64,000 nt of DNA, taken from the NCBI GenBank assembly GCA_022826645.1, contig JAJDUM010000027.1, positions 12,033 to 76,032 of the forward strand. The letters are read 5' to 3'. Positions 39,291 to 58,850 of the stretch are shown here, piece after piece. Source of the stretch: Candidatus Poribacteria bacterium. GTDB taxonomy: Bacteria > Poribacteria > WGA-4E > PCPOR2b. The position numbers and the translations under genes were made by a program. Under the pieces are notes generated by a model. That model was not told the origin of the DNA and did no database searches. It saw nothing but the letters and a program-made list of their open reading frames with translations. Positions within the stretch are counted from its first letter, which is position 1, and every line of letters begins with the position of its first letter.

Positions 39291-39619
39291 ATTGTTTTTT
39301 GTTGACGTGGCCGATCCGAAGTGATATGATTGGAAATACTATACAGTGCAAATGTCGTGCGTATTGAAAACCACAGAATTTATGGGGATTCATTGGGCGT
39401 TGGGAACGATGACCTGTAGGCGGGGCATCTTGCCCCGCATCCTCCTACCGATGAATTGCCGAACTATCCCCTGATAAGGAGAGCAGGAGGTTGACTTTAA
39501 CCGTTCAACTGCGTAACTCCTATTATTTTTAGAATCCACTATAGCTATCGAGATAATTTATGGCGGTGTGGATGTGTGTTCATTTCAGTCAAAACACAAG
39601 CAGAATCTCATAAGGCATC

Positions 39620-41510: not shown

Positions 41511-42656
41511 TTAGGTGTCTATTCGGTTGGCTTCAATATAATCCCAATCATACTCTATACCCAATCCGGGCTTCTGAGAGACGATCACATTACCTTCAGA
41601 ATCGATTGGATCTGTAATCGTTTTTAGCTCGGGCGAAGGCTGTTCATAATCAACACCGGGACGTAGGAGTCCCCTCTCGTAATACCGACAGGTAGCTTCG
41701 GGCGCAGCGCAGGCAAGATGGACGTGGGGTGCACCTGTGCCGTGCAGTTCGCACTGTATACCGTAAGCCTGACAAAGATTGATTAACTTCCAGCAACCGG
41801 TGATCCCACCATAGAAGATGTCGATACGCATCATGTCGGACGCCCCCTGTAGTATCCACTCCGCTCGGCTGAACACGCCGCCGGGGACGTGTTCCGGGGA
41901 ACAGATGGCGATATCCACCTCGCGGGTGAGTCGCCGGTACGCTTCGACACGGGTCTCAATCATAGGGTGCTCCAACCAGTAGTAATCGAGTTTCTCCAAC
42001 TCTCGCCCCACCCAGATCGCTTCATCCAAGGTATAAACACCGAACGGGTCAAGCATCAGCACCATATCATCCCCTACCGCGTCGCGCACTGCTTTGCATA
42101 CCTCGACATCTTCCTTTGGGAAGCCCGGGAGCTGCGGTGCAGGCTCCTCGGTGTGTGGGTTCCAGCAGATGTAGGCATGGACTTTGTATGCCTTATAGCC
42201 TTTCGCTTTACAAGCTTTCGCGTGCTCGGCATAAACTTCGGGACCACCTAAGTTGGGAAAAGTACTTGCATAGGCTCGGACCTTATCACGTGCCCCACCC
42301 AAGAGTTGGTAGACCGGGACGCCAGCCTTGTTACCCAATAGGTCCCACAGTGCGCAATCAGCTATCCCCATCTCACCCTCCGACGGCCTATGACTGAAAG
42401 TGGACATCTGGTCCATCCAGTGCCAGATCTGCTCCCGGTGTAATGGGTTTTCGCCCAAGATGAGTGGCTTGATGACCCCCTCCATTGTGGCTTTGTCACC
42501 CCCAAGCATGTGTCCGTTGATACCTTCGTCAGTAGAAATCTTGGTGATTGAACCGATACTCTCCACTTCATCTCCCCAGACACCATACCCCCACTTGGTC
42601 GGGTGCCCCCGGGTCGTTGTCCGAAACTGAATGACCTCCACATCAGTTATTTTCAT
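41511..42656 (-). CDS. enolase-superfamily enzyme (mandelate racemase/muconate lactonizing family)
   Basis: Barrel-domain metal ligands ('MLDPFG', 'WLEHP'). Confidence 0.85.
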   Translation of the reverse strand: MKITDVEVIQFRTTTRGHPTKWGYGVWGDEVESIGSITKISTDEGINGHMLGGDKATMEGVIKPLILGENPLHREQIWHWMDQMSTFSHRPSEGEMGIADCALWDLLGNKAGVPVYQLLGGARDKVRAYASTFPNLGGPEVYAEHAKACKAKGYKAYKVHAYICWNPHTEEPAPQLPGFPKEDVEVCKAVRDAVGDDMVLMLDPFGVYTLDEAIWVGRELEKLDYYWLEHPMIETRVEAYRRLTREVDIAICSPEHVPGGVFSRAEWILQGASDMMRIDIFYGGITGCWKLINLCQAYGIQCELHGTGAPHVHLACAAPEATCRYYERGLLRPGVDYEQPSPELKTITDPIDSEGNVIVSQKPGLGIEYDWDYIEANRIDT

Positions 42657-43242
42657 GTTTTTCCTCCTCAGATAGCGGCGGCTTGGAAGTTCAAGACTGC
42701 CTCTTTTTCCGTGCTTTATCCGTGAGACAAAATCGTAGTAAGAATATAAGTCGTATGATATACTGGATACACCGATTTGTCGACAGGAAACGTATCTTGA
42801 TCCAAGTTGATTGCAAGGTTAGTCCCCTTATTCCCCTGTCCCGCCAGTTTGGGATTTCGCTTATGCAGAACAAGCAGAGGGACAGTGATATCGGTTTATC
42901 ATCAGGTACAGGAAGTCCCTCCTACAAGCCCCTCAACCTGCGGGAAGAGAGGCGATTCGATCTGAATCACGGACTAAACAGATGAAGCGGATAACGCGGA
43001 TAAGAATGCGTAAAACGTGATGCGTGAAAGCAGATTGTAATGTATAGGGTTCATTAGTTCAATCAACCAATGTAGCTCTAGAGGGCGACATGTAGGTGAT
43101 TTTAACTTATATAGGACTTACGTACTTGAACACGCAAAGCTTTGTAGTTCGGTGATTCATCACCGCAGTACGCCATTTCCAACGCCCGATGAATCCCCGA
43201 TAAATCGGGATTAAGAAACGGGCAACTACAGTAAGGTCTTAG

Positions 43243-43302
43243 GTTTGTAGTAGCGCAATTCATTGCGCGTCCGGACGGGCGATAAATCGCCCTACTACAA
43301 AC
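43243..43302 (+). repeat. double-hairpin repeat (family B) gtttgtagtagcgcaattcattgcgcgtccggacgggcgataaatcgccctactacaaac
   Basis: A near-identical copy at 58851-58912. gtagtag/ctactac arms flank two internal palindromes. Confidence 0.75.
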
Positions 43303-43316
43303 TGAACTGCGTAACT

Positions 43317-43488
43317 CCTATTATAGTAAAGTTTAGAATTAATTGAACACTCTGTACCGGCGAGGTTAGGAAACCTCGCCTACCGCGGATGGAAAAATCC
43401 GGGCTCTCACCCCGGTAGGTGCGGTTTCTAACCGCACGGCACGGGACAGAACATGGGCAGCGAAAGTGTCTATCTGTTTTTAGAATCC
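43317..43488 (-). repeat. family-A modular intergenic repeat, inverted copy (left boundary of defense island)
   Basis: It is the reverse complement of 57686-57851. It shares 'ccggtacag..ttgaattaattctaaactttactataat', the 'gtgcggtttctaaccgcac' hairpin and the 'gtgtctat..tttttagaat' end. Confidence 0.75.
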
Positions 43489-43504
43489 ACTATAATTAAA
43501 ATTA

Positions 43505-44731
43505 ATGAGAATCACAATGCCAGATTTTACAGACAAAGAATTGCTACAAATCGTCGAATTCGGCGAAGCGGACCGCGTTGAGTTGAAGGAATCTTTGTCC
43601 GGCAGTGCTACGGAAAGAATCAGGGAAGCCGTATGTGCGTTTGCCAACGATCTGCCACGCCACCAAAAACCGGGCTTGGTTTTCGTGGGGGTGAGAGACG
43701 ACAAAACCATTACAGGTCTATCGGTCACGGACGAGTTGCTCCAGCAGTTGGCTGATATGAAAACCGATGGGAATATTGTGCCGCCGCCCTCGTTGAACGT
43801 TGAAAAGCGCGTGCTGCAAGGTAAAGAGATTGCCGTCGTCACGGTACAACCCTCCGACTCGCCGCCGGTTCGATTTAGAGGTGCTATTTATATCCGTACC
43901 GGCCCGCGTCGAGGCATCGCTACAGCACAGGATGAAAGGATTCTCAACGAAAAGCGGCGATATGGAGATGTCCCCTTCGACCTACACCCCATCCTTGCAT
44001 CGGGCATCTCCAATCTTAACCTCGCCCGGTTCGAGAATGAATATCTGCCACAGGCTGTTACCGCCGAGATCCTGGAAGCCAATGATCGCACTTCCGAAGA
44101 ACGACTTGTCGCAACGAAGATGATTGCCCCGGGCGATGAACGAATCGCGACGGTATTGGGAGTACTAGTGATCGGCAGAAACCCACAAGATTTTCTTCCA
44201 GGTGCTTACGTGCAGTTCCTCAGAATTGATGGTAACGCATTAACCGATAATATTCTTGACAGCGAAGAGATACGCGGCGCAATCCCAGAACTCCTCCGCC
44301 GTTTGGATGAGAAGCTAATCGCTCACAATCGTACTGCTGTTGATTTCACAACCAGCGTCCTTGAACAACGGACGGAACTTTATCCCATCCCAGCGTTACA
44401 ACAGATCACCCGGAATGCCGTTATGCACAGAACCTACGAAGCAACCCATGCGCCGATTCGTGTGTCTTGGTTCAATGACCGCATTGAGGTTTTTAGTCCC
44501 GGTGGCGCGTTCGGGGTGATAACGGAGGCAAATTTCGGACAGCCCGGACTAACCGATTATCGCAACCCCAATCTGGCGGAGGCGATGAAGAATCTCGGTT
44601 ATGTGCAACGTTTTGGCGTGGGAATACCGACCGCGAAAAGACTCCTGACCGAGGCAGGGCACTCGGAACCGGAATTTAAAATTAACGACAATTACGTGGT
44701 CGTTACCATAAAAGCAGCGCAAAAATCCTGA
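43505..44731 (+). CDS. Schlafen/AlbA_2 DNA-binding domain + HATPase_c_4 (RecG-C-terminal-like) protein, defense-island associated putative regulator
   Basis: N-terminal 'ADRVELKESL...FANDL' (AlbA_2 E..K motif). C-terminal 'RNPNLAEAMKNLGYVQRFGVGI' (HATPase_c_4). Confidence 0.72.
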   Translation: MRITMPDFTDKELLQIVEFGEADRVELKESLSGSATERIREAVCAFANDLPRHQKPGLVFVGVRDDKTITGLSVTDELLQQLADMKTDGNIVPPPSLNVEKRVLQGKEIAVVTVQPSDSPPVRFRGAIYIRTGPRRGIATAQDERILNEKRRYGDVPFDLHPILASGISNLNLARFENEYLPQAVTAEILEANDRTSEERLVATKMIAPGDERIATVLGVLVIGRNPQDFLPGAYVQFLRIDGNALTDNILDSEEIRGAIPELLRRLDEKLIAHNRTAVDFTTSVLEQRTELYPIPALQQITRNAVMHRTYEATHAPIRVSWFNDRIEVFSPGGAFGVITEANFGQPGLTDYRNPNLAEAMKNLGYVQRFGVGIPTAKRLLTEAGHSEPEFKINDNYVVVTIKAAQKS

Positions 44732-44737
44732 GAGGAG

Positions 44738-45742
44738 ATGGCAATGCCCGTTCCAGTGCTAACGTTCTTCAACAATAAAAGCGGTGCTGGCAAGACATCC
44801 CTTGTCTATCATCTGGCGTGGATGCTATCCGATATGGATTATCAAGTGCTCGCTTGTGACCTCGATCCGCAGGCGAACCTCACCCGCATGTTTATCAATG
44901 AGGAACGTCTAGAAATACTGTGGCCTGACGATGGAGAGAGGAAAACCATCTATAATGCCCTCCAACCGCTTTTGGACGGGACCGGAGACATTGAGCAACC
45001 TTACCTAGAACGGATAGCACCGAAGTTGAGCCTCATCGTAGGGGATCTCTCGTTATCCGCTACCGAAGATGAATTTTCGAGCCAATGGCAAGCGTGTCTT
45101 GACCGTCGCCCACGTGCTTTCCGTGTGATTTCAGCACTATGGCGCATTTTACAAACAGCAGCGAACGATAGTGGTGCTGAGATTGTCTTGGTAGATGTGG
45201 GGCCCAATCTAGGGGCTTTGAATAGAGCGGTGTTGGTTGCGACGGATTACGTTATCGTTCCGCTTGGAACAGATCTGATTTCACTTCAAGGACTGCGGAA
45301 CCTTGGTCCGATGCTACGAGATTGGCACAGTGGATGGAAAGATAGATGCGACCGCAACCCCATCCCTGACCTATGTATACCCAATGGATGGATTCAACCC
45401 ATCGGCTATCTGGTACGGCAACCTGATATCCGTTTGAATCGCCCTATAACGGTTGATGACAAATGTTTCAACCGTATGCCAGAGGAATATGCCCGAAACC
45501 TACTAGGCGATAACAATGGCCCCTATCCTGAGACACCGGCACAAGATGAAAAACACGCCCTCGCTATTGTCAAGCACTATCGAAGCCTAGTACCGATGGC
45601 ACAGGAGGCACGAAAGCCCATGTTCCATCTCACTCCGGCCGATGGGGCCATCGGCAGCCATGCCGCCGCCGCCAATGGGGCTCGTGCGGATTTCAAGGCT
45701 TTGGCTGAGAAGATAATCGCAAGGATTGAACTTGGGATATGA
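44738..45742 (+). CDS. ParA/MinD-family ATPase
   Basis: Deviant Walker A 'NNKSGAGKTS' and 'ACDLDPQANL'. It is 334 aa, with a C-terminal extension. Confidence 0.82.
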   Translation: MAMPVPVLTFFNNKSGAGKTSLVYHLAWMLSDMDYQVLACDLDPQANLTRMFINEERLEILWPDDGERKTIYNALQPLLDGTGDIEQPYLERIAPKLSLIVGDLSLSATEDEFSSQWQACLDRRPRAFRVISALWRILQTAANDSGAEIVLVDVGPNLGALNRAVLVATDYVIVPLGTDLISLQGLRNLGPMLRDWHSGWKDRCDRNPIPDLCIPNGWIQPIGYLVRQPDIRLNRPITVDDKCFNRMPEEYARNLLGDNNGPYPETPAQDEKHALAIVKHYRSLVPMAQEARKPMFHLTPADGAIGSHAAAANGARADFKALAEKIIARIELGI

Positions 45743-45795
45743 ACCAATGAACTAATGAACTAATGAACCAAAACAACCTGAGATAGGTATAAATT

Positions 45796-48700
45796 ATGTC
45801 CAATCGTAACACCCGAATCCGAGACAATCACGATCGTGGAACGGTCGGCGATTTTCTGAAAGCCAACATCGAAAACGGTTCGGCACTCTCAGTTGTATCG
45901 GCATACTTCACAATCCACGCCTTTGAAGGACTCAAAGAACATCTGTGGAAAATTGACGGCCTTCGATTCCTGTTCGGTGAACCCGACTTTATCAAAAATC
46001 TCGACGCAAGGGACACCGATCCGAAAGCCTTCAAAATTGAGGACGAGGGGTTGCAGCTTGACCAGACGCTTCAACAGAGACCGATTGCAAAAGCGTGCGC
46101 TGAGTGGATAGACAAGAAGGTGGAGATTAAGTCAACCCGACAATCGAATCTACTCCATGGGAAAATGTATCACATCGCCAACAACGACGCAGAAAAAGCC
46201 ATCATGGGCAGTTCTAATTTTACCGTGCAGGGACTCGGGTTGAGTCAGTCCAACAATAACATTGAGCTCAACTTAGAGGTGGAGAACGACCAAGACCGTC
46301 GGGACCTGAAAGCGTGGTTTGATGACCTCTGGAACGACGATAAACGGGTCGAAGATGTCAAGAAAAAGGTAATTGACAGGTTAGAGAAGCTGGGGGACGA
46401 TCAGGCACCAGAGTTCATCTATTACAAGACCCTTTACGAGTTGTTCCGGGATGAATTAGAAACCCGCATGAACAACGAGCAGAAAATAGAGGACACGCAC
46501 CTATACGACACACAAATTTGGGATACGTTGTACGCCTTTCAGAAAGATGGTGTAAAAAGCGTCATCGCCCGTCTGTTGCGTCACAACGGCTGCATCCTCG
46601 CTGATAGCGTGGGATTGGGCAAGACCTACACAGCGTTGGCGGTTATCAAGTTCTTTGAATTAAGGAATGAGCGTGTACTGGTGTTGTGTCCCAAAAAACT
46701 GCGCGAAAACTGGGCACTATATCCAGTGTATTACAGTCAACTCAACAACCCGTTCGAGGAAGACAAATTCGGCTACTCGCTGCTATCGCATACCGACCTA
46801 TCCCGCTACGAAGGCGACGCCGACGGCACCGGTTTGGAGGGGTTTAACTGGAGTAATTTTGACTTGGTGGTGATCGACGAATCGCACAACTTCCGCAACG
46901 ACACCAAACCCACCCTTGATGATGCGGGTAATATCACCCGCCACAGTCGCTACACACGGTTGTTAGAGGAGGTTATCAAGGAGGGCGCCCAAACGAAGGT
47001 GCTGATGCTTTCAGCGACGCCGGTCAATACGTCCCTCATTGACCTGCGGAATCAGATCTACCTGATGACCGGAAAGCGCGAAGAGGTCTTCCAGAAAAGT
47101 TTGGGGATCAGCAATATCCGCGCTTTGTTGGGGCAGGCACAAAAGGAGTTTAAGGCATGGGAAGATGATAAGGACAGTGGTAGAGATAAATCGAAATTGC
47201 TGGCTAAATTGGGAGCCGACTTCTTCCAGTTACTCGGCGGCGTTTCTATCGCCCGCTCTCGACGGCACATTGAGACTTTCTACGCCGATGAAATCGATAG
47301 AATCGGCGAGTTCCCCGAACAACTGAAACCGGAAAACCATCACCCACCCACCGACCTGACCGGCGCACTCTCCTATAAATATTTGGCGGATCAGATAGAG
47401 AAATTCTCCCTGTCTGTCTACACGCCGTCCAGTTACGTCATCGGTGAAGCAGCAAAACAGCGATTGGCACAAGAGAAACAGGACTTCCGTTTCAACCAGT
47501 TGGACCGTGAGAAGTTCCTGATTGGAATGATGCAGACCAACTTTCTCAAGCGTCTGGAGAGTTCCGCACACTCCCTCACAGAAACGCTCCAACGCACAAT
47601 CGGCAAAATTGACACCTTGTTGGAAAAGATCGAACGTTATGAACAAAACCAGCAGATGCCGGAAACAGAAAGTGACCGCCTCGCAGAGACCGACATCCTT
47701 CCGGAGGACGACGAAGACGATGAGGAGTTTCTGGTAAATAAGGCGCGTTACCCCTATCACTTGGGAGAATTGGATTGCGTCCGTTGGAAAGAAGATCTCA
47801 TAAAGGACAAAGGGACGTTGGGGGAGGCGTTGGAGAGCGTCAAAGGGATCACGCCGGAGCGAGACGGCAAACTTCAAGCGATTAAGGCGCATATTCGCGA
47901 CAAGGCAGCACACCCCCCGACCGACAAGGACGGAGAGATCAATCGCAAGCTCTTAGTATTCACCACCTTCAAGGACACGGCGGAGTACCTCTATGATAAC
48001 CTCTCGGATCTGGCAGCGGAACTGAACCTGAAGGTGGCGATGGTCTCCGGTGACGTGACGCGCACCCAATCCCGACCAAACAACTTCAACGCCATCCTCA
48101 CCAATTTCGCGCCACGAGCCCGGGGACGCGCCGATAACGACGGCGATGAAATTGACCTGCTAATCGCCACCGATTGCATATCGGAGGGACAAAATCTACA
48201 GGATTGCGACACGGTGCTGAACTATGACATCCACTGGAATCCGGTGCGTATCATCCAACGCTTCGGCCGTATTGACCGCATCGGCAGCCGCAACCTCTCG
48301 GTGCGAATGATTAACTATTGGCCCACCGAGGATATGGAGGTCTATCTGCGCCTGCAAAGCCGTGTCGAGGCTCGCATGGCACTCGCGGACGCGGCGGCAA
48401 CCGGCAGTGAGGACCCGTTGAACGAATCGGCTTATGAACAAGCCCAAATGGAACTGAATTTCCGCGACCAGCAGCTGAAACAACTGCGCGAAGAGGTGTT
48501 AGATTTCGACGACCTCTCCGACGGGGTTGTTCTGAGCGATTTTACGCTCGACTACTTCTTCACCCAACTATTGCGGTATCTGGAAAAGAACAAAAAGGAG
48601 TTGGAAGCGGCACCCAACGGCGTGTATGCTGTCACCCACGATGAAAGCCATCCGACAGAAACCGGGGTCATCTTTTTTCTCCGCCAGCGGAATGCCAACA

Positions 48701-49089
48701 CAGATATACAGAGAAAAACAGCCAGTCCTATCCACCCCTTTTATGCGGTCTATATCCGCAACAGTGACGACATCCGCTACGGTTGTGCAAACACCAAACA
48801 GGTGCTCGATCTGTTTGAATCGGCGGCGGTCGGTAAGATCGATCCGTTGCATGACCTATGTATCCAGTTTGACACCGAAACCCAAAATGGCAAGGACATG
48901 ACGCTCTACAACAAACTATTGAAAACGGTCATCGCTCACATCAGCAGAGCGCACACAACAACACAAACCAGAAATCTGAAGCGTGGGGGTCCACGCGACT
49001 TAAAACTAACTCCGAGATCCGAAACCCCCAGAGACACCAGCGATTTTGAGTTAGTAACGTGGCTGGTTATCACAACCCCGCAATCATAG
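45796..49089 (+). CDS. PLD-family (single HKD) nuclease domain fused to SNF2-family helicase
   Basis: The N-terminal 'HGKMYHIANND...GSSNFTVQG' is an HxK...GSxN motif. Helicase motifs 'DSVGLGKT', 'VVIDESHNFRN', 'LSATPVNT' and 'QRFGRIDRIG'. Confidence 0.85.
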   Translation: MSNRNTRIRDNHDRGTVGDFLKANIENGSALSVVSAYFTIHAFEGLKEHLWKIDGLRFLFGEPDFIKNLDARDTDPKAFKIEDEGLQLDQTLQQRPIAKACAEWIDKKVEIKSTRQSNLLHGKMYHIANNDAEKAIMGSSNFTVQGLGLSQSNNNIELNLEVENDQDRRDLKAWFDDLWNDDKRVEDVKKKVIDRLEKLGDDQAPEFIYYKTLYELFRDELETRMNNEQKIEDTHLYDTQIWDTLYAFQKDGVKSVIARLLRHNGCILADSVGLGKTYTALAVIKFFELRNERVLVLCPKKLRENWALYPVYYSQLNNPFEEDKFGYSLLSHTDLSRYEGDADGTGLEGFNWSNFDLVVIDESHNFRNDTKPTLDDAGNITRHSRYTRLLEEVIKEGAQTKVLMLSATPVNTSLIDLRNQIYLMTGKREEVFQKSLGISNIRALLGQAQKEFKAWEDDKDSGRDKSKLLAKLGADFFQLLGGVSIARSRRHIETFYADEIDRIGEFPEQLKPENHHPPTDLTGALSYKYLADQIEKFSLSVYTPSSYVIGEAAKQRLAQEKQDFRFNQLDREKFLIGMMQTNFLKRLESSAHSLTETLQRTIGKIDTLLEKIERYEQNQQMPETESDRLAETDILPEDDEDDEEFLVNKARYPYHLGELDCVRWKEDLIKDKGTLGEALESVKGITPERDGKLQAIKAHIRDKAAHPPTDKDGEINRKLLVFTTFKDTAEYLYDNLSDLAAELNLKVAMVSGDVTRTQSRPNNFNAILTNFAPRARGRADNDGDEIDLLIATDCISEGQNLQDCDTVLNYDIHWNPVRIIQRFGRIDRIGSRNLSVRMINYWPTEDMEVYLRLQSRVEARMALADAAATGSEDPLNESAYEQAQMELNFRDQQLKQLREEVLDFDDLSDGVVLSDFTLDYFFTQLLRYLEKNKKELEAAPNGVYAVTHDESHPTETGVIFFLRQRNANTDIQRKTASPIHPFYAVYIRNSDDIRYGCANTKQVLDLFESAAVGKIDPLHDLCIQFDTETQNGKDMTLYNKLLKTVIAHISRAHTTTQTRNLKRGGPRDLKLTPRSETPRDTSDFELVTWLVITTPQS

Positions 49090-49165
49090 CTGTAGGAGGG
49101 ATTTCCGAATTCCGATATATCGTTCAGGATTGAAGATGGGAAAACAAAAAACGGGAAGCGGATCT

Positions 49166-49611
49166 TTAGCCCCAACGGTGCGACAGGTTTATAGCTGTGG
49201 GAGGGGCATCCTTGCCCCGATCTCCGTGCGCTCCCAAGCCCCAGCGGGGCGGCATGTGTTGGAGTGATGCGTGATGCGTAAATAGTTCATTGGTTTAATT
49301 CTTGTCTGAATCAGGATTTGCAGGATTAAAGAATTTACAGGATAGAAAACGAAACGTGAAACGGGATGTGCGTTGGTTCATTTAGCACCAGAGAGGCGAC
49401 ATGTTTATAGCCGGGTGATAGGACCCTTCTTCCAAGCCCCAGCGGGGCGACATGTGCCATTTGTCTGAATCGCAGATTAAAACGGATTTAACGGATTTAA
49501 CGGATAAGGCAAAGAAAATGGGAAAATCAGCTTTTAGCCCCAGCGGGGCGACATGTTTATAGTACGCGGAATACGCAAATAACCAAAGCCCCAGCGGGGC
49601 GACATGTTAGA
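49166..49611 (+). repeat. cluster of REP-like hairpin repeats, unit ~ 'agccccagcggggcgacatgt(ttatag)' (stem GCCCC/GGGGC, loop AGC), 5-6 copies with irregular spacing
   Basis: Copies at 49166, 49236, 49392, 49434, 49535 and 49586. Inverted copies at 59111, 59157, 60722 and 60767. Confidence 0.75.
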
Positions 49612-49680
49612 ACTTATACAGTTCAGGTTGTAGGGAACAACGATCGTTGTTCCCTACGGACATAACAAGGGATAAAGCAC

Positions 49681-52600
49681 ATGACCAACGAAGAAATCAG
49701 AAAGAAGGAAGAAATCGAATCCGCCTTGGCTGCGATGATTGATGGCGATTTTTTGGAAACCGCAAATAACCTACTTGAGGTGTTAGATTACCACGCGCCA
49801 CTTACTGAGGAACTTCTGGAAACGGTGGATAACTTTATTCAGGAATACCCGGCTGAAAATGAAAACACCAAGACGGAACAAGAATTCCGTGAGAATGCCA
49901 AATCAATAGAATTAGTATCTCAAGTTGGGAGCGATGGAATTGCTGACAGGCAGCCAGACCGCTTGGAGTCAAAAACCTTCGACGGGGGACTTATACAGAG
50001 TTTTGTTTTCTGTGCTGTCGAATTAAAAGATAACGACTACTCCCGGAGCAAATACGCCCAATTCACACGAGAGATCAACAAACGGCTCCCCCTTGCGACT
50101 GTGGTGTTTTTTCGGGTTCAAGACCGTTTAACCATAGGTTTTGTCGGTCGCCGCCAACACAAGCGTGACCCAAATCTCGACGTACTGGAACAGGTCAGCC
50201 TAATCAAGGACATTCGACTAAATAAGCCACACCCGGCGCATAGAGAGATTCTGTATGAACTTTCGTTGGACGAATGCGCGAAGTGGATGGACGCCAAGGA
50301 CCAACCGGAAAACTTCGATGGCTTGCTCGCGGCGTGGCTTGCCCGACTGGACACCTCCGAACTCAACAAACGCTTCTTCAACGAACTCGCCAACTGGTAT
50401 TTCTGGGCTGTCGATCAGGTGACGTTCCCAGACGACGCGGGGGAAGACGTCGAAGTCCGCAACGCCACCAGCGTCATCCGCCTGCTCACACGACTAATTT
50501 TTGTGTGGTTCGTCAGGGAAAAGGGACTGGTGCCGGACGCGCTCTTTAACCCAAACGATCTCGATGACATCCTCAATAATCTCGATCCGGGGGAAAGCAC
50601 CTACTACAAAGCAATCCTTCAAAACCTGTTCTTTGCCACGCTCAATCAGGAGATGAACACCGAGCAGTATCCCAATAACCGCAAATTTCGCGGTGAGGGA
50701 CGGCAGCACTACAACATCACATCGTTCTATCGTTACAAAGACTGTTTCATTGACCCGGACGATGCCTTACGACAGTTTGAGGCAATCCCTTTTCTGAATG
50801 GCGGGCTATTTGAGTGCTTGGATGGGCAATCTAAAGATGATCCTACAGAGATTCTACGGATTGACGGCTTTTCCGACAGGAACGACATTCCGCTGCATGT
50901 CCCTAATGAACTGTTCTTTTCGGAGGAACGGAGCGTTGACCTCAATGCCGCTTACGGCACAAGAGGGAAACGACATAAAGTACGCGGCCTGATTCACATT
51001 CTCAGCAGCTACAAATTCACGATTGCCGAGAACACCCCGATTGAGGAGGAGGTCGCTCTGGACCCCGAACTGCTCGGCAAGGTGTTTGAAAACCTCCTCG
51101 CCGCCTACAACCCCGAAACCAAAGTAACCGCCCGCAAACAGACCGGCTCCTACTACACCCCCCGCGAGATTGTCAACTACATGACCGACGAGTCGTTGAT
51201 TGCCTATCTAAAAAATGAGCTCATCCGCCCCGTTGAGTCCGATGCACAAAAAGCGGAGATCGAGAAGAAACTTCGCGGGCTGCTCGCCTATAACGATGCC
51301 CCAAACCCATTCGATGAGGCGGAAACCGAGGTGCTAATCAAAGCCATTGACGCCCTCAAGATCCTTGATCCCGCCTGCGGTTCGGGCGCGTTTCCGATGG
51401 GGGTGCTGCATAAACTGGTATTCATTCTCGGAAAATTGGATCCGCGCAATGAGCAGTGGAAGCAACGGCAAATCGCCAGAGTCGAAAGTACCATTGAGAG
51501 GGCGGAGGACATTGACGATAGCACATTTCGGGAAAATACTATCCGCGAACTTGAGGGGGAAATTGAGAACATCAACGAGGCATTTGAACGGAACGAACTG
51601 GACTACGGGCGGAAACTCTACCTGATTGAAAACTGCATCTACGGCGTGGACATTCAGCCCATCGCCACCCAGATTGCCAAGCTCCGCTTCTTTATCTCCC
51701 TCATCGTAGATCAGCAGATTGACGGATCACGGGAGAATCACGGGGTACGCCCGCTGCCGAACCTGGAAACGAAGTTTGTCGCGGCGAATACGCTCATCGG
51801 CGTGGATAAACCGTTGCAAACACAAATCCGCAGCCCGCAGGTTGACCGCAAGGAGAAGGAACTGGAGGATGTGCGCCGCAGACACTTCACCGCTCGCACC
51901 CCAAGCACCAAAGCCAAATACCGTGCCCTCGATGCCCAAATCCGCACCGAAATTGGTGAATTGCTCAGAGACCTCGGCTTTCCCGATGAGACGACTGAGA
52001 AAATCGCTAATTGGGACCCCTACAATCAGAACGCAAGTGCGGATTGGTTCGATTCGGAATGGATGTTTGGGGTCAGGGATGGGTATGATATTACGATTGG
52101 CAATCCGCCGTATATTCAATTGCAAAGCGATGGTGGACAATTAGGGCGTTTGTATGTACCGTGCAATTTTGATAGCTTTATCAGGACAGGGGATATTTAT
52201 TGCCTGTTCTATGAAAAAGCGAATCAACTGTCGAAAAAGAGCGGGCATGTCTGTTTTATTACTTCTAACAAATGGATGCGCGCAGCGTATGGCAAAAAGC
52301 TGAGAGATTATTTTATCTCACATACCCAACCGATTCAACTGCTAGATATGGGACCAGATGTATTTGATGCCACCGTGGACACCAACATCCTGCTACTGCA
52401 AAACGCCCTATCCGATGGCAGTACACACCTCCCCTTCACAGCTACAACTATCAAATCTGATTTCGACAAACATGCTGGCGACATAGCCAAATACCTGAAG
52501 GATAACGGTGTGACTATGGAACTGCCCTCTAAAGGCGAACCGTGGGCGATACTCTCACCGACTGAACTTGCCCTGAAACGCAAGATAGAAGAGGTTGGCA

Positions 52601-53409
52601 AACCGCTCAAAGACTGGGATATAAACATCTATCGTGGAATTGTAACAGGTTTCAATGAAGCATTTGTCATAGACGAAGCCAAGCGTGAAGAATTGATAGC
52701 GGTTGACCCAAAGTCAGCCAAAATCATCAAACCACTTCTGCGCGGACGAGACATCAAACGCTATCATGCCCAATGGGTGGGATTGTATTTGATAAGTACT
52801 TTTCCTGTGCTTGATTTGAACATTGACGATTATCCTGCGGTTAAAAGTCATCTTCTGGAGTTTGGCAGAGATCGATTGGCACAGGTTGGTAAAACACTTG
52901 CTGACGGCACTAAATCTCGTAAGAAGACAGGAAATAAATGGTTTGAGTTACAAGATCAAATCGCTTACTACCCCGAGTTTGCAAAGGAGAAAGTTATTTA
53001 TCCAGAGATAACAAAGTTTCTCCCATTTGTTTACGACCCAAATGAGTTCTACATCAATAATAAGAGTTTTATCATTACGGGTGGAAATTATTTGAAATAT
53101 CTTACAGGATATCTTAACTCTCGGATCGCAGCAAAGTGGATTCGTGAAAACTGTCCAGAATTGGGTGATGACAGAAGAGAGTTGAGAAAAGTATTCTTTG
53201 AGAATATTTTAATTCCTCCTGTTACGGAAGCGAACCAACACCTTGTCACGCAGATAGAAACGCGGGTGGACCAAATCCTCGACGCCAAAGACACGAATCC
53301 AGACGCGAATGTATCCGAACTTGAAAAAGAGATTGATCAGATAGTATACTTGTTATACGATCTCACCGATGAAGAAATTAAAATTGTGGAGGCTGCGGAA
53401 ACTGTCTGA
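49681..53409 (+). CDS. Type IIG/IIL restriction-modification enzyme (PglX/DrmMI-like N6-adenine methyltransferase with putative N-terminal PD-(D/E)xK nuclease and C-terminal TaqI_C-type TRD)
   Basis: 'DPACGSGAFPMG' (motif I) and 'ITIGNPPYIQ' (motif IV NPPY). N-terminal 'DGG..FVFCAVELK' (D...ExK). The C-terminal target-recognition domain is homologous to the next gene's C-terminus. Confidence 0.85.
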   Translation: MTNEEIRKKEEIESALAAMIDGDFLETANNLLEVLDYHAPLTEELLETVDNFIQEYPAENENTKTEQEFRENAKSIELVSQVGSDGIADRQPDRLESKTFDGGLIQSFVFCAVELKDNDYSRSKYAQFTREINKRLPLATVVFFRVQDRLTIGFVGRRQHKRDPNLDVLEQVSLIKDIRLNKPHPAHREILYELSLDECAKWMDAKDQPENFDGLLAAWLARLDTSELNKRFFNELANWYFWAVDQVTFPDDAGEDVEVRNATSVIRLLTRLIFVWFVREKGLVPDALFNPNDLDDILNNLDPGESTYYKAILQNLFFATLNQEMNTEQYPNNRKFRGEGRQHYNITSFYRYKDCFIDPDDALRQFEAIPFLNGGLFECLDGQSKDDPTEILRIDGFSDRNDIPLHVPNELFFSEERSVDLNAAYGTRGKRHKVRGLIHILSSYKFTIAENTPIEEEVALDPELLGKVFENLLAAYNPETKVTARKQTGSYYTPREIVNYMTDESLIAYLKNELIRPVESDAQKAEIEKKLRGLLAYNDAPNPFDEAETEVLIKAIDALKILDPACGSGAFPMGVLHKLVFILGKLDPRNEQWKQRQIARVESTIERAEDIDDSTFRENTIRELEGEIENINEAFERNELDYGRKLYLIENCIYGVDIQPIATQIAKLRFFISLIVDQQIDGSRENHGVRPLPNLETKFVAANTLIGVDKPLQTQIRSPQVDRKEKELEDVRRRHFTARTPSTKAKYRALDAQIRTEIGELLRDLGFPDETTEKIANWDPYNQNASADWFDSEWMFGVRDGYDITIGNPPYIQLQSDGGQLGRLYVPCNFDSFIRTGDIYCLFYEKANQLSKKSGHVCFITSNKWMRAAYGKKLRDYFISHTQPIQLLDMGPDVFDATVDTNILLLQNALSDGSTHLPFTATTIKSDFDKHAGDIAKYLKDNGVTMELPSKGEPWAILSPTELALKRKIEEVGKPLKDWDINIYRGIVTGFNEAFVIDEAKREELIAVDPKSAKIIKPLLRGRDIKRYHAQWVGLYLISTFPVLDLNIDDYPAVKSHLLEFGRDRLAQVGKTLADGTKSRKKTGNKWFELQDQIAYYPEFAKEKVIYPEITKFLPFVYDPNEFYINNKSFIITGGNYLKYLTGYLNSRIAAKWIRENCPELGDDRRELRKVFFENILIPPVTEANQHLVTQIETRVDQILDAKDTNPDANVSELEKEIDQIVYLLYDLTDEEIKIVEAAETV

Positions 53410-53465
53410 ATCACGGATTAGACGGATTTAGCGGATAGCGCGGATTTTTTAATCCGTGTCCTTCG

Positions 53466-53507
53466 TTAATCCGCGATAATCATCGATTCTGACAGTGAGA
53501 GGATTGG
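53466..53507 (+). repeat. family-D repeat 'taatccgcgataatca(t/g)cgattctgacagtgagaggattg'
   Basis: Copies at 58694-58736 and 58939-58974. The flanking 'tctgaatcacgga' is also at 42961 and 58981. Confidence 0.7.
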
Positions 53508-53589
53508 AATTGTGGAGGAAGCTATCCAACTGAAAGTGGGGTTGGGTTAAATAATATTTGACAGGTACGGAATTAAGGAGACCAAGGGA

Positions 53590-56253
53590 ATGAATAAAGT
53601 TTTTATCTCCTATGTTAGGGAAAATATAGAAATAGTTGACCGGCTCTACCAAGAACTCACAGCACACGGGATCGAAGTCTGGCTGGATCGGGAAAATATT
53701 GATCCAGGATCTCGCTGGGAGCAAGCAATTCGGAGAGCTATTCAACAAGGAGCTTTTTTCATTGCCTGTTTCTCCGAGGAATATCATAATCGTGGTCAGA
53801 CCTACATGAACCAAGAACTTACGTTCGCAATTGATGAGCTGCACCAACGCTCCCCTGATCAAATATGGTTTATTCCCGTAAAATTAAACGAATGCGAGAT
53901 TCCTGACCGTGACATTGGTGGCGGGAAAACCTTACAAGCCCTACAGTATGTCAATCTCTATGAAAACTGGGACGATAGTATCCAACGTATTCTTAAAGTC
54001 ATTCAACCCGGATTATCTGAACCTGTTATAAACGCAAATGCTGTAGAGCAATCCGAAACGCAAGTTCAGCCACAGGAGGCAAACGCCTATTTCGATCAAG
54101 GCAATGTTTACCAAAGCAAGGGTGATTATGACCATGCCATCGAAGCTTTTAACACAGCAATAGAACTCAAACCTGATTTTGCCGAAGCCTATACCAATCG
54201 CGGTCTAGCTCACCAGAACAAAGGTGATTTTGACCTTGCCTTTAAAGACCACGCCAAAGCGATAGATCTGAATCCCGATTATGCCGAAGCCTATTTCAAT
54301 CGCGGTGGTGCTCATAAGAGCAAAAACAATTATGTTCATGCCCTTGTAAACTTTAACACAGCAATAGAACTCAAACCCGATTTTGCCGGGGCCTATAACC
54401 ATCGTGGCGTAGTTTACCTTGATAGAGGTGATGATGATTGTGCCATCGCAGATTTTACCAGAGCGATAGATCTGAATCCCGATTTTATTGCCGAAGCCTA
54501 TACCAATCGCGGACTTGCTTACCATAAAAAAGGTGAAATTGACAATGCCCTCAAAGACTATACCAAAGCGATAGACCTGAATCCTAATTTTGTTGCCGAA
54601 GTCTATTACAATCGCGGGTCCGCTTACGGGAACAAAGGGGATTTTGACCGCGCTATTGGGGATTTGAACAAAGCAATAGAGCTCAAACCCGATGATGCCA
54701 AAGCCTATAGCAATCGTGGAGTTGCTTACCACGGCAAGGGCGATTTTGACCATGCTATTACAGACTATACCAAAGCAGCAAAACTCAACCCCGATTCTAC
54801 TGAAATCTATTACAATCGCGGAGTTGCTTACGGGGCAAAAGGCGATTTTGACCGCGCTATTATAGATTATACCAAAGCGATACAACTCAACCCCGATTCT
54901 CCCATAGCCTATAATAATCGCGGGGTAGCTTACCACGGCAAAGGCGATTTTGACCGCGCTATTACAAACTATACCAAAGCGATAAACCTGAATCCCGTTT
55001 TTGTCAATGCCTATTGCAATCGTGGTGAGACGTGGTTACACCTAGAAGAGTGGGATAAAGCCAGGGCAGACCTGAGTGTCGCCAGAAAGATGGGGATAGA
55101 TATCGTTGCTTTATTTCATAATGAATACAAGAACGTTGAGGCGTATGAACGGGCAAATCGTGTTAAATTGCCCGAAGATATCGCCGCGATGCTGACGCAG
55201 CGGCGGCGGAGCCGTTTCCCCAAAACCGAAAAGTTCTTGAGTGCTGACGGCACCCCCCTTGAATCGCCCGATATATTGAATCTGCTTGCAAAACTCCGCA
55301 ACGCGGGACCACCCCTGTCGCAATACCTTCAGACGCGCCCCACTTTTGGACTCAAGACCGGTGCGAGCGGAGCCTTTGTCGTGGATAGTGCGACGCGAGA
55401 TCAACTCATTGCGGATCACCCTGCATCTGCTGATATTTTGAAACCGTTTCTGCACGGACGGGACATCAGACGCTGGGGGGTGGAGAGCCCCGATTCATGG
55501 TTAATTTTTGTCCACCGTCGCATAGAGATAGACCGTTATCCTGCCATCCGAAAACACCTGGAACAATATAGATCGGTCTTGAGCAAAAGGGCGGGTAAAC
55601 AGAAATGGTACGAACTGCCAACCACCAAAAAAGGCACCGAGCGCTTTACACAAACAAAACTCATTTGCCCAAATAACTACAATCACCAAACCTTCGCTGT
55701 TGATACGGACGGGTTTTACTGTGGAGATACATGCTACCTGATTCCGACTGAGGAGACATGGTTATGCGGTCTCCTCAATTCCCGCGCTGTGGAGTGGTTC
55801 TATTCGCAGGTGTCAAAACAGTTGACGGGGGATTATCTTCGGGCGCGCAGCCGCCATATCCAAGAAATCCCTATCCCCGAGCTCACGTCAACACAGAAAT
55901 CCCTAATCGGCAAAATCGTTGATTATCTCATCTTTCTTCAGGGACAACCGACGACGAGGAGCGGGGATTTAGCACATGCCCGCGATGCTGTGATGCTCGG
56001 GTATTTTGAGCGGATCATTGACGGACTGGCTTATGAGTCCTATCTACGTGAAGAACTGCATCAAGGGGAAAAACAGTTCTTCAACCCGTTGTTGGATGAG
56101 CGGTTGCCGCAACTTGAAGAAATTCGGGGCGATAAAATGGCCGCGTTACAAGAAATCTTCGAGCGATTGTATGAAAGAATGCATCCGATCCGGCGAAACC
56201 TTTTCTTTCTGAACAGTGTAAAACCGATCCGCATCATTGAGGACAGAACGTGA
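53590..56253 (+). CDS. TIR-domain protein with ~10 TPR repeats and a C-terminal TaqI_C-like DNA target-recognition domain (candidate defense effector/sensor)
   Basis: N-terminal 'KVFISYVREN...GIEVWLD...IDPGSRW...FIACFSEEY...MNQELTFAI' is a bacterial TIR_2 pattern including a candidate catalytic Glu. Then 34-aa 'AEAYxNRGxAYxxKGDFDxAIxDYTKAIxLNPD' repeats. The C-terminal 'FGLKTGASGAFVVD...ILKPFLHGRDIRRW...YPAIRKHL...KWYEL...LLNSRAVEWF' aligns with the TRD of the upstream RM enzyme. Confidence 0.8.
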   Translation: MNKVFISYVRENIEIVDRLYQELTAHGIEVWLDRENIDPGSRWEQAIRRAIQQGAFFIACFSEEYHNRGQTYMNQELTFAIDELHQRSPDQIWFIPVKLNECEIPDRDIGGGKTLQALQYVNLYENWDDSIQRILKVIQPGLSEPVINANAVEQSETQVQPQEANAYFDQGNVYQSKGDYDHAIEAFNTAIELKPDFAEAYTNRGLAHQNKGDFDLAFKDHAKAIDLNPDYAEAYFNRGGAHKSKNNYVHALVNFNTAIELKPDFAGAYNHRGVVYLDRGDDDCAIADFTRAIDLNPDFIAEAYTNRGLAYHKKGEIDNALKDYTKAIDLNPNFVAEVYYNRGSAYGNKGDFDRAIGDLNKAIELKPDDAKAYSNRGVAYHGKGDFDHAITDYTKAAKLNPDSTEIYYNRGVAYGAKGDFDRAIIDYTKAIQLNPDSPIAYNNRGVAYHGKGDFDRAITNYTKAINLNPVFVNAYCNRGETWLHLEEWDKARADLSVARKMGIDIVALFHNEYKNVEAYERANRVKLPEDIAAMLTQRRRSRFPKTEKFLSADGTPLESPDILNLLAKLRNAGPPLSQYLQTRPTFGLKTGASGAFVVDSATRDQLIADHPASADILKPFLHGRDIRRWGVESPDSWLIFVHRRIEIDRYPAIRKHLEQYRSVLSKRAGKQKWYELPTTKKGTERFTQTKLICPNNYNHQTFAVDTDGFYCGDTCYLIPTEETWLCGLLNSRAVEWFYSQVSKQLTGDYLRARSRHIQEIPIPELTSTQKSLIGKIVDYLIFLQGQPTTRSGDLAHARDAVMLGYFERIIDGLAYESYLREELHQGEKQFFNPLLDERLPQLEEIRGDKMAALQEIFERLYERMHPIRRNLFFLNSVKPIRIIEDRT

Positions 56254-57671: not shown

Positions 57672-57685
57672 AGGAGTGCTATAGC

Positions 57686-57851
57686 GGATTCTAAAAATAA
57701 ATAGACACTTTCGCTCCCCATGTTTGGTAGGCGCTGTTTCCAACTGCGCCGATGCGGTGCGGTTAGAAACCGCACCTACCGGGGTGATAGCCCGGATTTC
57801 CCCCCCCCCCCCGGTACAGAATGTCCAATTAATTCTAAACTTTACTATAAT
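57686..57851 (+). repeat. family-A modular intergenic repeat (right boundary of defense island), includes a 12-nt poly-C tract
   Basis: 'ggattctaaaaataaatagacac', 'gcggtgcggttagaaaccgcacc' and 'ccggtacagaatgtccaattaattctaaactttactataat'. It is the inverse of 43317-43488. Confidence 0.75.
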
Positions 57852-58651: not shown

Positions 58652-58850
58652 TGCAGATTGCACCGTTTTAATTCCGCGTTATCCTTAAATCCGCGATAAT
58701 CAGCGATTCTGACAGTGAGAGGATTGTAGTGGTGTATCGGGGCAGGTCCCGATTTATCGGGATCCTCGCGTTGCGGGAGATGCCTCTCCCACGTCCAACG
58801 GCGTAGATAACGCAGATTTTTTGCATCGGTGTCCGCCGCACGGTTTCGTG

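Follow-up and report, generated by a model that had tools for sequence, protein, structure and literature searches.

The repeats that crowd two intergenic stretches of a 64,000-nt segment of Candidatus Poribacteria DNA (hereafter the window, meaning all 64 kb analysed) are very probably a pile-up of two families of MITEs, MITE-1 derived from an IS630-family IS and MITE-2 from an IS701-family IS, shaped by insertion, deletion, solo ends and variable hairpins. This reading draws on element structure, target-site duplications, insertion polymorphism, restriction to the lineage and matches to the ends of parent ISs whose transposase families were identified; from these observations we infer mobilisation in trans for both families, and likewise any effect on neighbouring genes. 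The preliminary description of this DNA had suspected composite MITEs in the intergenic regions, and this proved right: there are two such families, each traced to a parent IS family, and their copies are stacked through insertion next to one another. Both families are ordinary selfish DNA, except that the ends of MITE-1 closely resemble the Correia elements of Neisseria.

Repeat modules and their extent

All four modules named earlier (a palindrome, a double hairpin, a single hairpin and a terminal block) were found in both stretches, in the order first reported and far above chance. The terminal module, GTGTCTRTnnnTTTTTAGAATYC, occurs at five sites in the 64 kb (12800 and 14474 on the minus strand, 43466 on the plus, 57686 on the minus and 59437 on the plus; 0.00 expected). 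The GGTGCGGTTnnnAACCGCAC hairpin is present at five window sites (12912, 43418, 57756, 59334 and 59375), against a chance expectation of 0.12, and CCCGATAAATCGGG-like palindromes at seven, with 11 matches over both strands where 0.43 were expected. The double hairpin at 43237-43302 shows 94% identity to that at 58846-58911, and its arms (43243-43272 and 43273-43302) are 83% complementary. The first stretch had been delimited as a mosaic over 42690-43500, which holds for 43101-43497 only: 42657-43100 is nearly matchless, with a single match, over 42960-42999, in the ~0.9 Mb of related DNA compared. The two stretches share the order of modules in part because MITE-1 is a single element comprising both the hairpin and the terminal module; in the first stretch, the palindrome and double hairpin are internal to the other element, MITE-2.

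MITE-1, a family of TA-flanked mobile elements

In the window and ~0.9 Mb of related DNA, a partner repeat was found 60-320 nt away for 129 of 157 terminal modules; this second terminal repeat had gone unrecognised in the preliminary description. The elements are ~100-350 nt long, with TA duplications on either side and one to five GC-rich hairpins inside, and their imperfect 29-nt terminal inverted repeats are complementary at 21/29 positions. The ends are symmetric (AWY-TA-TRGTGGATC...GAATTCACYA-TA-RWT, with a flank profile of T93/A93 on both sides), and the consensus of 39 short copies measures 102 nt. Pairs of terminal repeats lying farther apart (0.45-3 kb) were considered as candidate autonomous elements and rejected, since all enclose ordinary genes.

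A complete copy of 169 nt lies at 43324-43492 (+), recognised by its terminal repeats (TAGTAAAGTTTAGAATTAATTGAACAC at the low-coordinate end, GTGTCTATCTGTTTTTAGAATCCACTA at the other), the end consensus and a TA duplication established through empty sites. It contains the hairpins GGCGAGGTTAGGAAACCTCGCC and, inverted, GGTGCGGTTTCTAACCGCAC, and TA duplications at 43322-43323 and 43493-43494 separate it from its surroundings, the next gene starting with the ATG at 43505. A second complete copy of the same subfamily, at 57682-57847 (-), was absent from the copies first listed; it is 72% identical to the first over 195 nt, carries a G13 run, has TA duplications at 57680-57681 and 57848-57849, and begins 9 nt past the stop codon of a convergent ATPase gene. 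The long form at 59240-59463 (+) retains a terminal repeat at 59437-59463, followed by TA (59464-59465) and the downstream gene's Shine-Dalgarno sequence. Its far repeat is lost, possibly leaving the remnant AATTGAGAC at 59268-59276, and inside it are two tandem GGTGCGGTTGGAAACCGCACC-TACCGG hairpins (59334-59354 and 59375-59395) and a CCCGATAAATCGGG palindrome (59403-59416).

Three further sites had been listed as partial copies. The first, 12789-13020, is instead a full long-form MITE-1 of ~232 nt (~12796-13027, -) with both terminal repeats, several internal hairpins and degenerate flanking TA, ~85 nt upstream of the start (12710) of a metallo-beta-lactamase-fold gene. The other two are indeed incomplete. 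The site at 14474-14540 is a solo terminal repeat (14470-14508, -), to which other copies are homologous only ~12 nt inward, with TA at 14468-14469, 7 nt past the stop codon of a TetR gene. That at 39512-39545 is a junction remnant (39506-39543, +) in which a MITE-2 right end (CAACTGCGTAACTCCTA, 39506-39522) runs into the final 15 nt of a terminal repeat of MITE-1 (39527-39541), with TA after it (39542-39543); by its sequence it looks like the arrangement at 43304-43494 minus the MITE-1 interior.

Insertion polymorphism, between species-level genomes, was seen in three filled/empty orthologous pairs of related DNA (L025/L036, L030/L107 and L036/L025), in which the empty site keeps one TA. The window itself holds an empty site, at 6853-6879, where the syntenic sequences L053 and L067 are filled with MITE-1 plus MITE-2. 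A 23-nt pattern from the terminal repeat matched at least 115 stretches; among the matches listed, 114 were from Poribacteria MAGs of ~17 assemblies, and the sole stretch from elsewhere, in Tenacibaculum, was dismissed as a chance match. Counted as eight-kb blocks, more than 114 were found in Candidatus Poribacteria, ~20 of them in OZ241983.1 alone, again among the matches listed, and viral contigs gave 0 matches to the terminal repeat. Short and non-coding, with terminal inverted repeats, a target duplication, insertion polymorphism and many dispersed copies, MITE-1 has the properties of a MITE, and in the literature searched we found no description linking Poribacteria with REP or MITE-type repeats.

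The consensus of MITE-1 folds into one long hairpin (-37.3 kcal/mol) that is strong (z = -4.7), pairing is present in 91.6% of cells against 36-51% when the partners are slid, and the apical hairpin shows a few compensatory changes (UA replaced by CG in six sequences and CG by AU in one). These data speak for a structured RNA, either a non-coding gene or a cis-regulatory cassette; the preliminary description had suggested structured RNA cassettes. The pairing, however, is that of the terminal inverted repeats; there is little covariation past subfamily variants, and the pair-type counts are not above those of shuffles. Moreover, Rfam gave 0 matches in the window at the gathering score and only chance-level ones (E = 0.15 and 0.87) at a relaxed threshold, and the occurrence of the elements in both orientations, in all spacer classes and as insertion polymorphisms argues against RNA genes. 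With no Rfam match and a long hairpin made of paired terminal repeats, the RNA cassettes were not borne out, and such a role is scarcely credible.

The copies at 43324-43492 (+) and 57682-57847 (-) belong to the same subfamily, are inverted and bracket seven defence-type genes. In other bacteria, pairs of MITEs have reportedly moved integrons and resistance genes, and the two copies could have acted as a composite transposon and carried along the 14-kb defence gene cluster that they enclose. Against this, both copies are flanked left and right by a TA of their own, and the pair is only 72% identical. With TA invariant, a shared outer duplication would be unreadable. No version of the locus without the defence island turned up; the sole further contig that includes the flanking gene is 3.7 kb long and ends in the repeats. 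We consider mobilisation by this pair very improbable.

The IS630-family parent of MITE-1

No transposase gene is encoded within the 64-kb window, nor does it contain a copy of the parent IS of either family. In related DNA, a 906-bp IS (L096:4456-5361) is missing from the syntenic, 97% identical sequence L016: the filled site reads catc-TA[TAGTAGAC...ATCTACTA]TA-atttcc and the empty one catc-TA-atttcc. The ORFs of this IS match DDE_3 (E = 2e-30), and the fused 277-aa protein scores 144 bits against the NCBIfam model of IS630 family transposases, NF033545 (cut-off 100). An A9 run divides the L096 transposase in two, and this could reflect either programmed frameshifting or a defect; intact relatives of 276-277 aa were found.

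The IS lineage that best matches both ends of MITE-1 is represented by two metagenome contigs of unverified taxonomy (L126 and L127), with 23-24/31 identical positions at the right end and 24-25/31 at the left (shuffle p <= 0.0003). The poribacterial copy in L096 matches one MITE-1 end at 23/31 positions and the other at 19/31. The left/right asymmetry of the two unequal ends of MITE-1 also agrees with the parent IS, which lacks the internal GC-rich hairpins. Two other IS630-family elements were rejected as partners, their ends being unrelated to MITE-1: the IS in L105 that adjoins two MITE-1 copies (ends AGCAATATTAAATAATAA), a separate IS with copies in L119-L124, and a second element at L119:3053-4207 (ends CAAACTGTATGAAG). 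The preliminary description had set its proposal against the possibility that the modules were fragments of a known IS terminal repeat; they are indeed IS terminal repeats, but ones carried by abundant, lineage-wide, non-autonomous derivatives.

Among plasmid records, the best tblastn match to the parent of MITE-1 was ISY100 (ISTcSa) of Synechocystis sp. PCC 6803, of the IS630/Tc1-mariner superfamily. ISY100 is small, about 0.95 kb, as compared with 0.906 kb for the poribacterial IS. Its ends (TA|TAGTCATTTCAATTAACGATGAGAG and, for the right end in reverse complement, TA|TAGTAGTTTCAAATAAAGCTGAGAC) have TA|TAGT and AATTAACGAT in common with the poribacterial IS end TATAGTAGATTTAACAATTAACGATACAT. 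The proteins are only 42% identical, in two pieces, so the poribacterial IS constitutes a separate lineage; unlike ISY100, which is autonomous and has a transposase gene, the window elements are non-coding derivatives only. A further parallel is the RUP element of Streptococcus pneumoniae, a MITE that has been ascribed to IS630-Spn1 and, like MITE-1, is non-coding, ~100 nt long and inserted at TA. RUP terminal repeats match an IS630-family IS of related genomes, and there are hundreds of copies per genome, as for MITE-1 (PMC2229807, PMC3049150). RUP and MITE-1 have no sequence relationship and differ in IS630 subgroup; MITE-1, unlike RUP, comes in many length classes owing to its variable number of internal GC-rich hairpins, and its parent IS is absent from the window.

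MITE-2 and its IS701-family parent

In the first stretch, MITE-1 is abutted by a 209-nt MITE-2 (43112-43320, +) with ends TAGGACTTACGTACTTGAAC and GAACTGCGTAACTCCTA, assigned by its match to the parent IS. Inside it are the CCCGATAAATCGGG palindrome at 43196-43209 (the cccgataaatcggg palindrome of this stretch) and the double hairpin at 43243-43302, made of GTAGTA-GCGCAATTCATTGCGC, TCCGGAC and GGGCGATAAATCGCC-CTACTAC. Across the family, YAGGACTTACGCA ends were found in 35 paired copies, with variable 5-bp duplications whose flanks match in most copies. An IS of 1073 bp in related DNA (L054:5721-6793) has ends TAGGAGTTACGCAGTTGA and CAACTGCGTAACTCCTA that are identical to those of MITE-2 at 17/18 and 16/17 positions, and encodes an IS701 family transposase (NF049921, 376 bits, cut-off 250; Pfam DDE_5). 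MITE-2 shares with this IS the ends, the 4-5-bp duplications and the AT-rich targets; it differs in having no coding capacity and an interior of hairpin modules, the double hairpin included.

The MITE-2 copy is flanked by the 5-bp duplication TTATA at 43107-43111 and 43321-43325. The right duplicate overlaps the TA and the first two bases of MITE-1, and MITE-2 was therefore inserted later than MITE-1, at its edge, supporting that the mosaic arose via adjacent insertions.

Many of the hairpins in the mosaic have GTAG/CTAC flanks (e.g. GGTAG-GTGCGGTTTCTAACCGCAC), the double hairpin is built from a pair of GTAGTA-palindrome units in inverted arrangement, and hairpin number and orientation vary within MITE-1. 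As intergenic mosaics of GC-rich palindromes with GTAG-like motifs beside the hairpins, the window elements resemble the BIMEs and REP/REPIN sequences of Enterobacteria and Pseudomonas, and the GTAG/CTAC-flanked hairpins could themselves be the mobile units, spread by a RAYT tyrosine transposase. REP/REPIN sequences depend on RAYT and are without long terminal inverted repeats or target duplications (bioRxiv 10.1101/2021.07.10.451892), whereas the window elements end in 29-nt inverted repeats, are flanked by duplications of TA or 5 bp and have parent ISs of the DDE type. Furthermore, the GTAG...hairpin / hairpin...CTAC layout of MITE-2 is part of its long subterminal inverted repeat. Once the terminal repeats and duplications had been established, this reading was demoted to a minor rival, and we regard it as improbable.

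One point in its favour is the second double hairpin (~58851-58912), 94% identical to the first, which lacks recognisable MITE-2 terminal repeats; at least one module may therefore move or persist by another route. A CCCGATTTATCGGG palindrome also stands isolated, at 58748-58761. The variable GC-rich hairpins may be second-order, REPIN-like mobile units nested in DDE-type MITEs, a suggestion weaker than that of common ancestry with Correia elements considered below.

On the favoured reading, the pile-up of DDE-type MITEs formed as follows. MITE-1 is a non-coding, internally replaced derivative of the ~906-bp IS630-family IS that kept both unequal ends, and the DDE transposase of the IS presumably moves it in trans, by cut-and-paste into TA, with duplication of the TA and a preference for YTAR in an AT-rich context. 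MITE-2 is the equivalent derivative of the IS701-family IS, making 4-5-bp duplications. New insertions land next to old ones because the TATA ends of MITE-1 are AT-rich targets, as at 43321-43325, where the target duplicated by MITE-2 was the MITE-1 TA with the first two bases of the element. Nested or adjacent insertion, together with internal deletion, solo ends and variable hairpin numbers, then produce the mosaic.

Position of MITE-1 relative to genes

In the two stretches, 10 nt separate MITE-1 and its TA from the ATG at 43505, and 26 nt from that at 59492; the preliminary description had proposed that such ends supply outward-facing -10 elements. The geometry is as supposed: the ends are intrinsically YATA+RW, with a mean of 4.5/6 matches to TATAAT; at least five of the six positions are matched in 54% of MITE-1 ends, and a perfect TATAAT lies at 43491-43496. 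A visual count put the end of ~15% of copies no more than ~45 nt from a Shine-Dalgarno sequence and ATG, so near that transcription must start in the element or cross it. The elements might thus be kept as promoter cassettes whose ends give adjacent genes outward promoters, as Correia elements can in Neisseria, where the 'Black' and 'Snyder' promoters offer a precedent (PMC2649163).

Promoter function was, however, unsupported by scan, orientation or placement. A sigma-70 consensus scan, a weak test as this may not be the consensus of Poribacteria, found no outward promoter at MITE-1 ends and no canonical -35. Orientation relative to genes is random (52 copies face starts and 57 face ends), and the distribution over tandem, divergent and convergent spacers (60/23/17%) follows that of the available intergenic length (64/25/11%). 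Likeness to TATAAT is the same at ends facing gene starts (64/115) and gene ends (53/101; p=0.68). Selection as promoter cassettes is therefore unlikely. A conserved 45-nt block had also been considered as a lineage-wide promoter; it was dropped in view of the 52 versus 57 orientation count and the finding of the partner inverted repeat.

Relation to Correia elements

Correia elements (CREE/NEMIS) have TA flanks and sizes (about 105 and 155 nt) comparable to those of MITE-1, and both have ends that intrinsically form -10-like hexamers. The terminal TATAGTGGAT(T) is common to Correia elements, MITE-1 and the parent IS, the outer 10-11 nt being identical. The similarity of the window end TATAGTGGATTCTAAAAACAG to the Correia end TATAGTGGATTAACAAAAATCAG exceeds that of shuffles (p <= 0.001), and the Correia repeat and the right end of the poribacterial IS agree at 22/31 positions (p about 0.001). 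In a literature search, the TATAGTGGAT string returned only Neisseria Correia papers and unrelated primers.

Beyond this, the interiors are unrelated, the inner half of the terminal repeat diverges and the host phylum differs; the Correia inverted repeat (26-28 nt) and core are not present in MITE-1, where 14-17/30 ungapped positions match. MITE-1 is therefore not a member of the Correia family, which has been described as unique to Neisseria (PMC5039591), though its ends look related. Correia elements are documented to have promoter activity, to bind IHF and to be cleaved by RNase III. Of their promoter features MITE-1 has the -10-like hexamer, with no -35 under a consensus that may not be the host's, and no placement bias. 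The mechanism that mobilises Correia elements has been described as undetermined (PMC2649163), in contrast to MITE-1, for which a parent IS family has been identified.

Correia elements, MITE-1 and the 906-bp IS could go back to a single IS630 subgroup whose termini are TA|TAGT, the missing Correia transposase being of that type; we advance this tentatively, at somewhat less than even chances. ISY100 seems to belong to the same subgroup. If this were true, the Correia transposase would have been lost from Neisseria or would act from outside, the poribacterial or ISY100 transposase should recognise Correia ends, and the Correia parent would be an IS630-family gene flanked by TATAGTGGATTAAC-type ends. 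The termini common to MITE-1 and Correia elements make the question of what moves the latter concrete and testable.

Implications for Poribacteria

Near accessory genes, the elements take up a large part of the longer intergenic spacers, which matters for annotation of Poribacteria, as they create spurious ORFs (e.g. 12753-13091). They also break short-read assemblies; contig L117 stops within MITE-2. Lying 10-30 nt from many start codons, they must be part of the promoters or leaders of those genes. As lineage-specific markers, they provide dated insertion events, in the hundreds, by which the evolution of these sponge symbionts can be traced and, with both parent ISs identified, a tractable example of MITE origin.

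Repeat modules in the two intergenic stretches

The two stretches that had been described as sharing hairpin-forming modules in the same order are both intergenic. The first, at 42690-43500, separates a mandelate-racemase-like gene (41511-42656, minus strand) from a Schlafen/AlbA_2 gene (43505-44731); the second, at 58652-59460, separates a PDDEXK_3-TPR gene (57860-58651) from an alpha/beta-hydrolase gene (start codon ATG at 59492). All of the named modules were indeed found in both, at counts far above chance expectation: GGTGCGGTTnnnAACCGCAC at five window sites against 0.12 expected, CCCGATAAATCGGG-like palindromes at seven (11 matches over both strands) against 0.43, and GTGTCTRTnnnTTTTTAGAATYC at five against 0.00. 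The 66-nt double hairpin has two window copies with 94% identity. The first interval proved repetitive over 43101-43497, which recurs elsewhere, but not over 42657-43100, which is unique save one match. This spacer of about 440 nt contains a 100-aa ORF (42683-42985) that no Pfam family matches and that has almost no counterpart in related DNA (one, over 42960-42999); the spacer may be a small or decayed gene or else a long leader.

MITE-1 is a TA-flanked transposon

Comparisons were made with 8-kb blocks of related DNA, about 0.9 Mb in total, and Logan contigs from run SRR16351679 also matched the window (both carry L-numbers here). Among 124 occurrences of the terminal module, conservation stopped sharply past ...GAATTCACYATA. 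Alignment of the shortest copies revealed another conserved block 60-80 nt from the first, TATAGTGGATCTTAGAATTAATGAGACAC, which is its imperfect reverse complement, and 129 of 157 terminal modules had a partner repeat 60-320 nt away. These paired, inversely complementary blocks indicate an element bounded by terminal inverted repeats, here called MITE-1, with complete window copies at 43324-43492 (plus strand), 57682-57847 (minus) and about 12796-13027 (minus). Its length classes (about 100, 150, 200 nt and above) are set by the number of GC-rich hairpins inside. The 102-nt consensus of 39 short copies, TATAGTGGATCTTAGAATTAATGAGACACTCCAAACCGGTGCGGTTGGAAACCGCACCTACCGGGGGGCGAAAGTGTCTATTTATTTTTAGAATTCACCATA, is predicted to fold into a single long hairpin (-37.3 kcal/mol, z = -4.7). 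A small number of compensatory variants occur in the apical hairpin.

The flanks of MITE-1 are symmetric, AWY-TA-[TRGTGG...CACYA]-TA-RWT, and at the TA positions the frequencies of T and A exceed 90%. In three clean filled/empty pairs, from syntenic loci of different species, the empty site has one TA and the filled site TA[element]TA; the window itself is empty at 6853-6879, a place occupied in L053 and L067 by MITE-1 and, after it, a second element, MITE-2. These duplications and empty sites establish MITE-1 as a transposon. When its 23-nt terminal pattern was scanned over one genome per species, at least 115 stretches matched, and 114 of the 115 matches listed fell in Candidatus Poribacteria MAGs, about 17 in number. 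The sole other match listed, in Tenacibaculum, was a chance one, the rest of the element being absent around it.

Within the copy at 57682-57847, a tract of 13 consecutive G (57800-57812; C on the plus strand), possibly slippage-prone, occupies the place of a GC-rich hairpin in the 43324-43492 copy. A 112-aa "ORF" at 12753-13091 is spurious, as it passes through a MITE-1 copy. A Gp49/HigB-like toxin and HTH antidote gene pair (13128-13809) lies between that copy and a solo repeat (14470-14508), which fits with repeats accompanying accessory genes.

An IS630-type parent of MITE-1

Widely spaced repeat pairs, considered as parent candidates, enclosed ordinary genes only. A phmmer search of six-frame ORFs from the sampled DNA, seeded with the Shigella IS630 transposase, matched an IS630-family IS in L105, whose ends are unrelated to MITE-1, and further DDE_3 ORFs in L096 and L008. 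The match at L096:4456-5361 is a 906-bp insertion missing from the syntenic, 97% identical L016, the filled site reading catc-TA-[TAGTAGACGCAAG...GTTAAATCTACTA]-TA-atttcc and the empty one catc-TA-atttcc. Its two ORFs, joined across an A9 run, give a 277-aa protein scoring 144 bits against NF033545 (IS630 family transposase; cut-off 100), and intact single-ORF relatives of 276-277 aa were found. Many Logan contigs, 905-911 nt in length, evidently represent collapsed copies of it.

The right end of the IS, in reverse complement TATAGTAGATTTAACAATTAACGATACAT, shares 23-24 of 31 positions with one MITE-1 repeat, and its left end, TATGGTGAAACCTATAAATAATTAGAC (L126, L127), shares 24-25 of 31 with the other (shuffle p <= 0.0003 for each). 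As each end matches its own repeat, both unequal ends have been kept in their proper places: the terminal module corresponds to the end of the IS 5' of the transposase start codon, and the other repeat is the end overlapping the stop codon. MITE-1 is a new IS630-derived MITE, standing to its parent as RUP does to IS630-Spn1 (PMC2229807). In our sample the IS is complete in L096 and L125, represented by its 3' half only in L008 and absent from the window, and L076:5945-6256 is an internally deleted remnant (IS positions 1-138 joined to 442-624), a possible IS-to-MITE intermediate. The best-supported mechanism for the spread of MITE-1 would be selfish cut-and-paste transposition in trans.

Two other ISs were encountered. 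The separate IS630-family IS of L105 (reverse strand, about 5405-6675; also L119-L124) has ends AGCAATATTAAATAATAA and TA duplications; in L105 it has inserted into the TA that borders a MITE-1. Its two ORFs (179 aa and 210-218 aa) overlap, and the split is conserved, at 84-98% identity, in many Poribacteria contigs of differing genomic context, a pattern more suggestive of programmed frameshifting than of decay. The other, L039:1913-3030, is bounded by ends TATATGAGGGGTGCTCATAA and encodes an IS982/IS5-like DDE transposase.

MITE-2 and the order of the modules

In the first stretch the palindrome and the double hairpin lie within the segment 43112-43320, a copy of MITE-2, which has the ends TAGGACTTACG... 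and ...CTGCGTAACTCCTA. Paired copies of these ends number 35, and their 5-bp duplications are AT-rich and vary in sequence; the window copy has TTATA (43107-43111 and 43321-43325). Screening for ORFs with flanking inverted repeats identified L054:5721-6793 (1073 bp), which has the same ends and codes for an IS701 family transposase (NF049921, 376 bits; Pfam DDE_5); MITE-2 is an IS701-derived MITE. A GTAGTAGCGCAATnCATTGCGC hairpin usually lies 9 nt inward from a MITE-2 end, and the double hairpin is two such units back to back; no MITE-2 ends were recognisable at the second-stretch double hairpin (58851-58912).

The right-hand copy of TTATA is made up of a single flanking T, the TA of MITE-1 and the first two MITE-1 bases, so MITE-2 inserted later than MITE-1, at its edge. 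The two also adjoin in L034, L039, L053 and L067, and a junction remnant at 39506-39543 has the window arrangement minus the MITE-1 interior. That MITE-2 repeatedly abuts MITE-1 explains, at least in part, the recurring module order. Logan contig L117 terminates within MITE-2, indicating that short-read assemblies are fragmented by these repeats.

Promoter and RNA readings

Of the two natures proposed in the preliminary description, that of composite MITEs was correct, while that of structured RNA cassettes, like a reading as promoter cassettes, is unsupported. Rfam and tRNA scans gave zero matches. The suggestion that element ends could supply outward-facing -10 elements holds as far as motif and position go: MITE-1 ends intrinsically make -10-like hexamers, with a perfect TATAAT at 43491-43496, and the elements end 10 nt before the start codon at 43505 and 26 nt before that at 59492. 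However, a consensus scan found no outward promoter at these ends, the share of elements in tandem, divergent and convergent spacers is proportional to spacer length, and ends by gene starts are not more TATAAT-like than ends by gene ends (p = 0.68). Terminal modules point toward gene starts in 52 cases and toward gene ends in 57. By analogy with Correia elements of Neisseria, which can donate promoters case by case (PMC2649163), single MITE-1 copies may possibly do so, but promoter donation is not what maintains the family.

Neighbouring genes and other repeats

Between the repeat clusters (43505-57671), the genes resemble a defence island: Schlafen/AlbA_2 with a HATPase_c_4 domain, a ParA-like ATPase, an SNF2 helicase fused to a PLD nuclease, an Eco57I/MmeI-type methyltransferase, a TIR-TPR protein with a TaqI_C domain and an SMC/AAA_23-like ATPase. 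GC drops to 0.42-0.44 near 52-55 kb. A further hairpin repeat (..ACATGTCGCCCCGCTGGGGC..) forms clusters of two to seven copies, spaced about 50 nt apart, at 49165-49608, 59105-59188 and 60719-60800, and in related loci (12-17 matches). An AATCC-rich repeat (..AATCCGCGATAATCAGCGATTCTGACA..) is found at 53405-53514, 58653-58734, 58919-58990 and 59024-59066, directly 3' of the PDDEXK_3-TPR stop codon and again nearby, and likewise 3' of a PDDEXK_3 paralogue in L087. Tandem repeats of 102-105 nt (54077-55073, 57996-58272) are TPR units in coding genes, unrelated to the intergenic repeats.

Relation to Correia elements

Among plasmid records, the best tblastn match of the MITE-1 parent was ISY100 of Synechocystis (42% identity), whose ends, like those of the Poribacterial IS, begin TA|TAGT and contain AATTAACGAT. 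Correia elements have been described as unique to Neisseria (PMC5039591), with a mobilising mechanism described as not determined (PMC2649163). Their outermost 10-11 nt equal the MITE-1 termini and the likeness continues inward; the Correia repeat and the right end of the Poribacterial IS are identical at 22 of 31 positions (p about 0.001), in a comparison of short sequences chosen after the resemblance was noticed. From these terminal likenesses, Correia elements might derive from an IS630 subgroup with TA|TAGT termini, shared with ISY100 and the Poribacterial IS, a descent that we propose tentatively and hold to be somewhat less probable than its opposite. The Poribacterial elements are new members of a well-known kind; the analysis adds the identification of both parent ISs and a lead, open to testing, as to where Correia elements came from.
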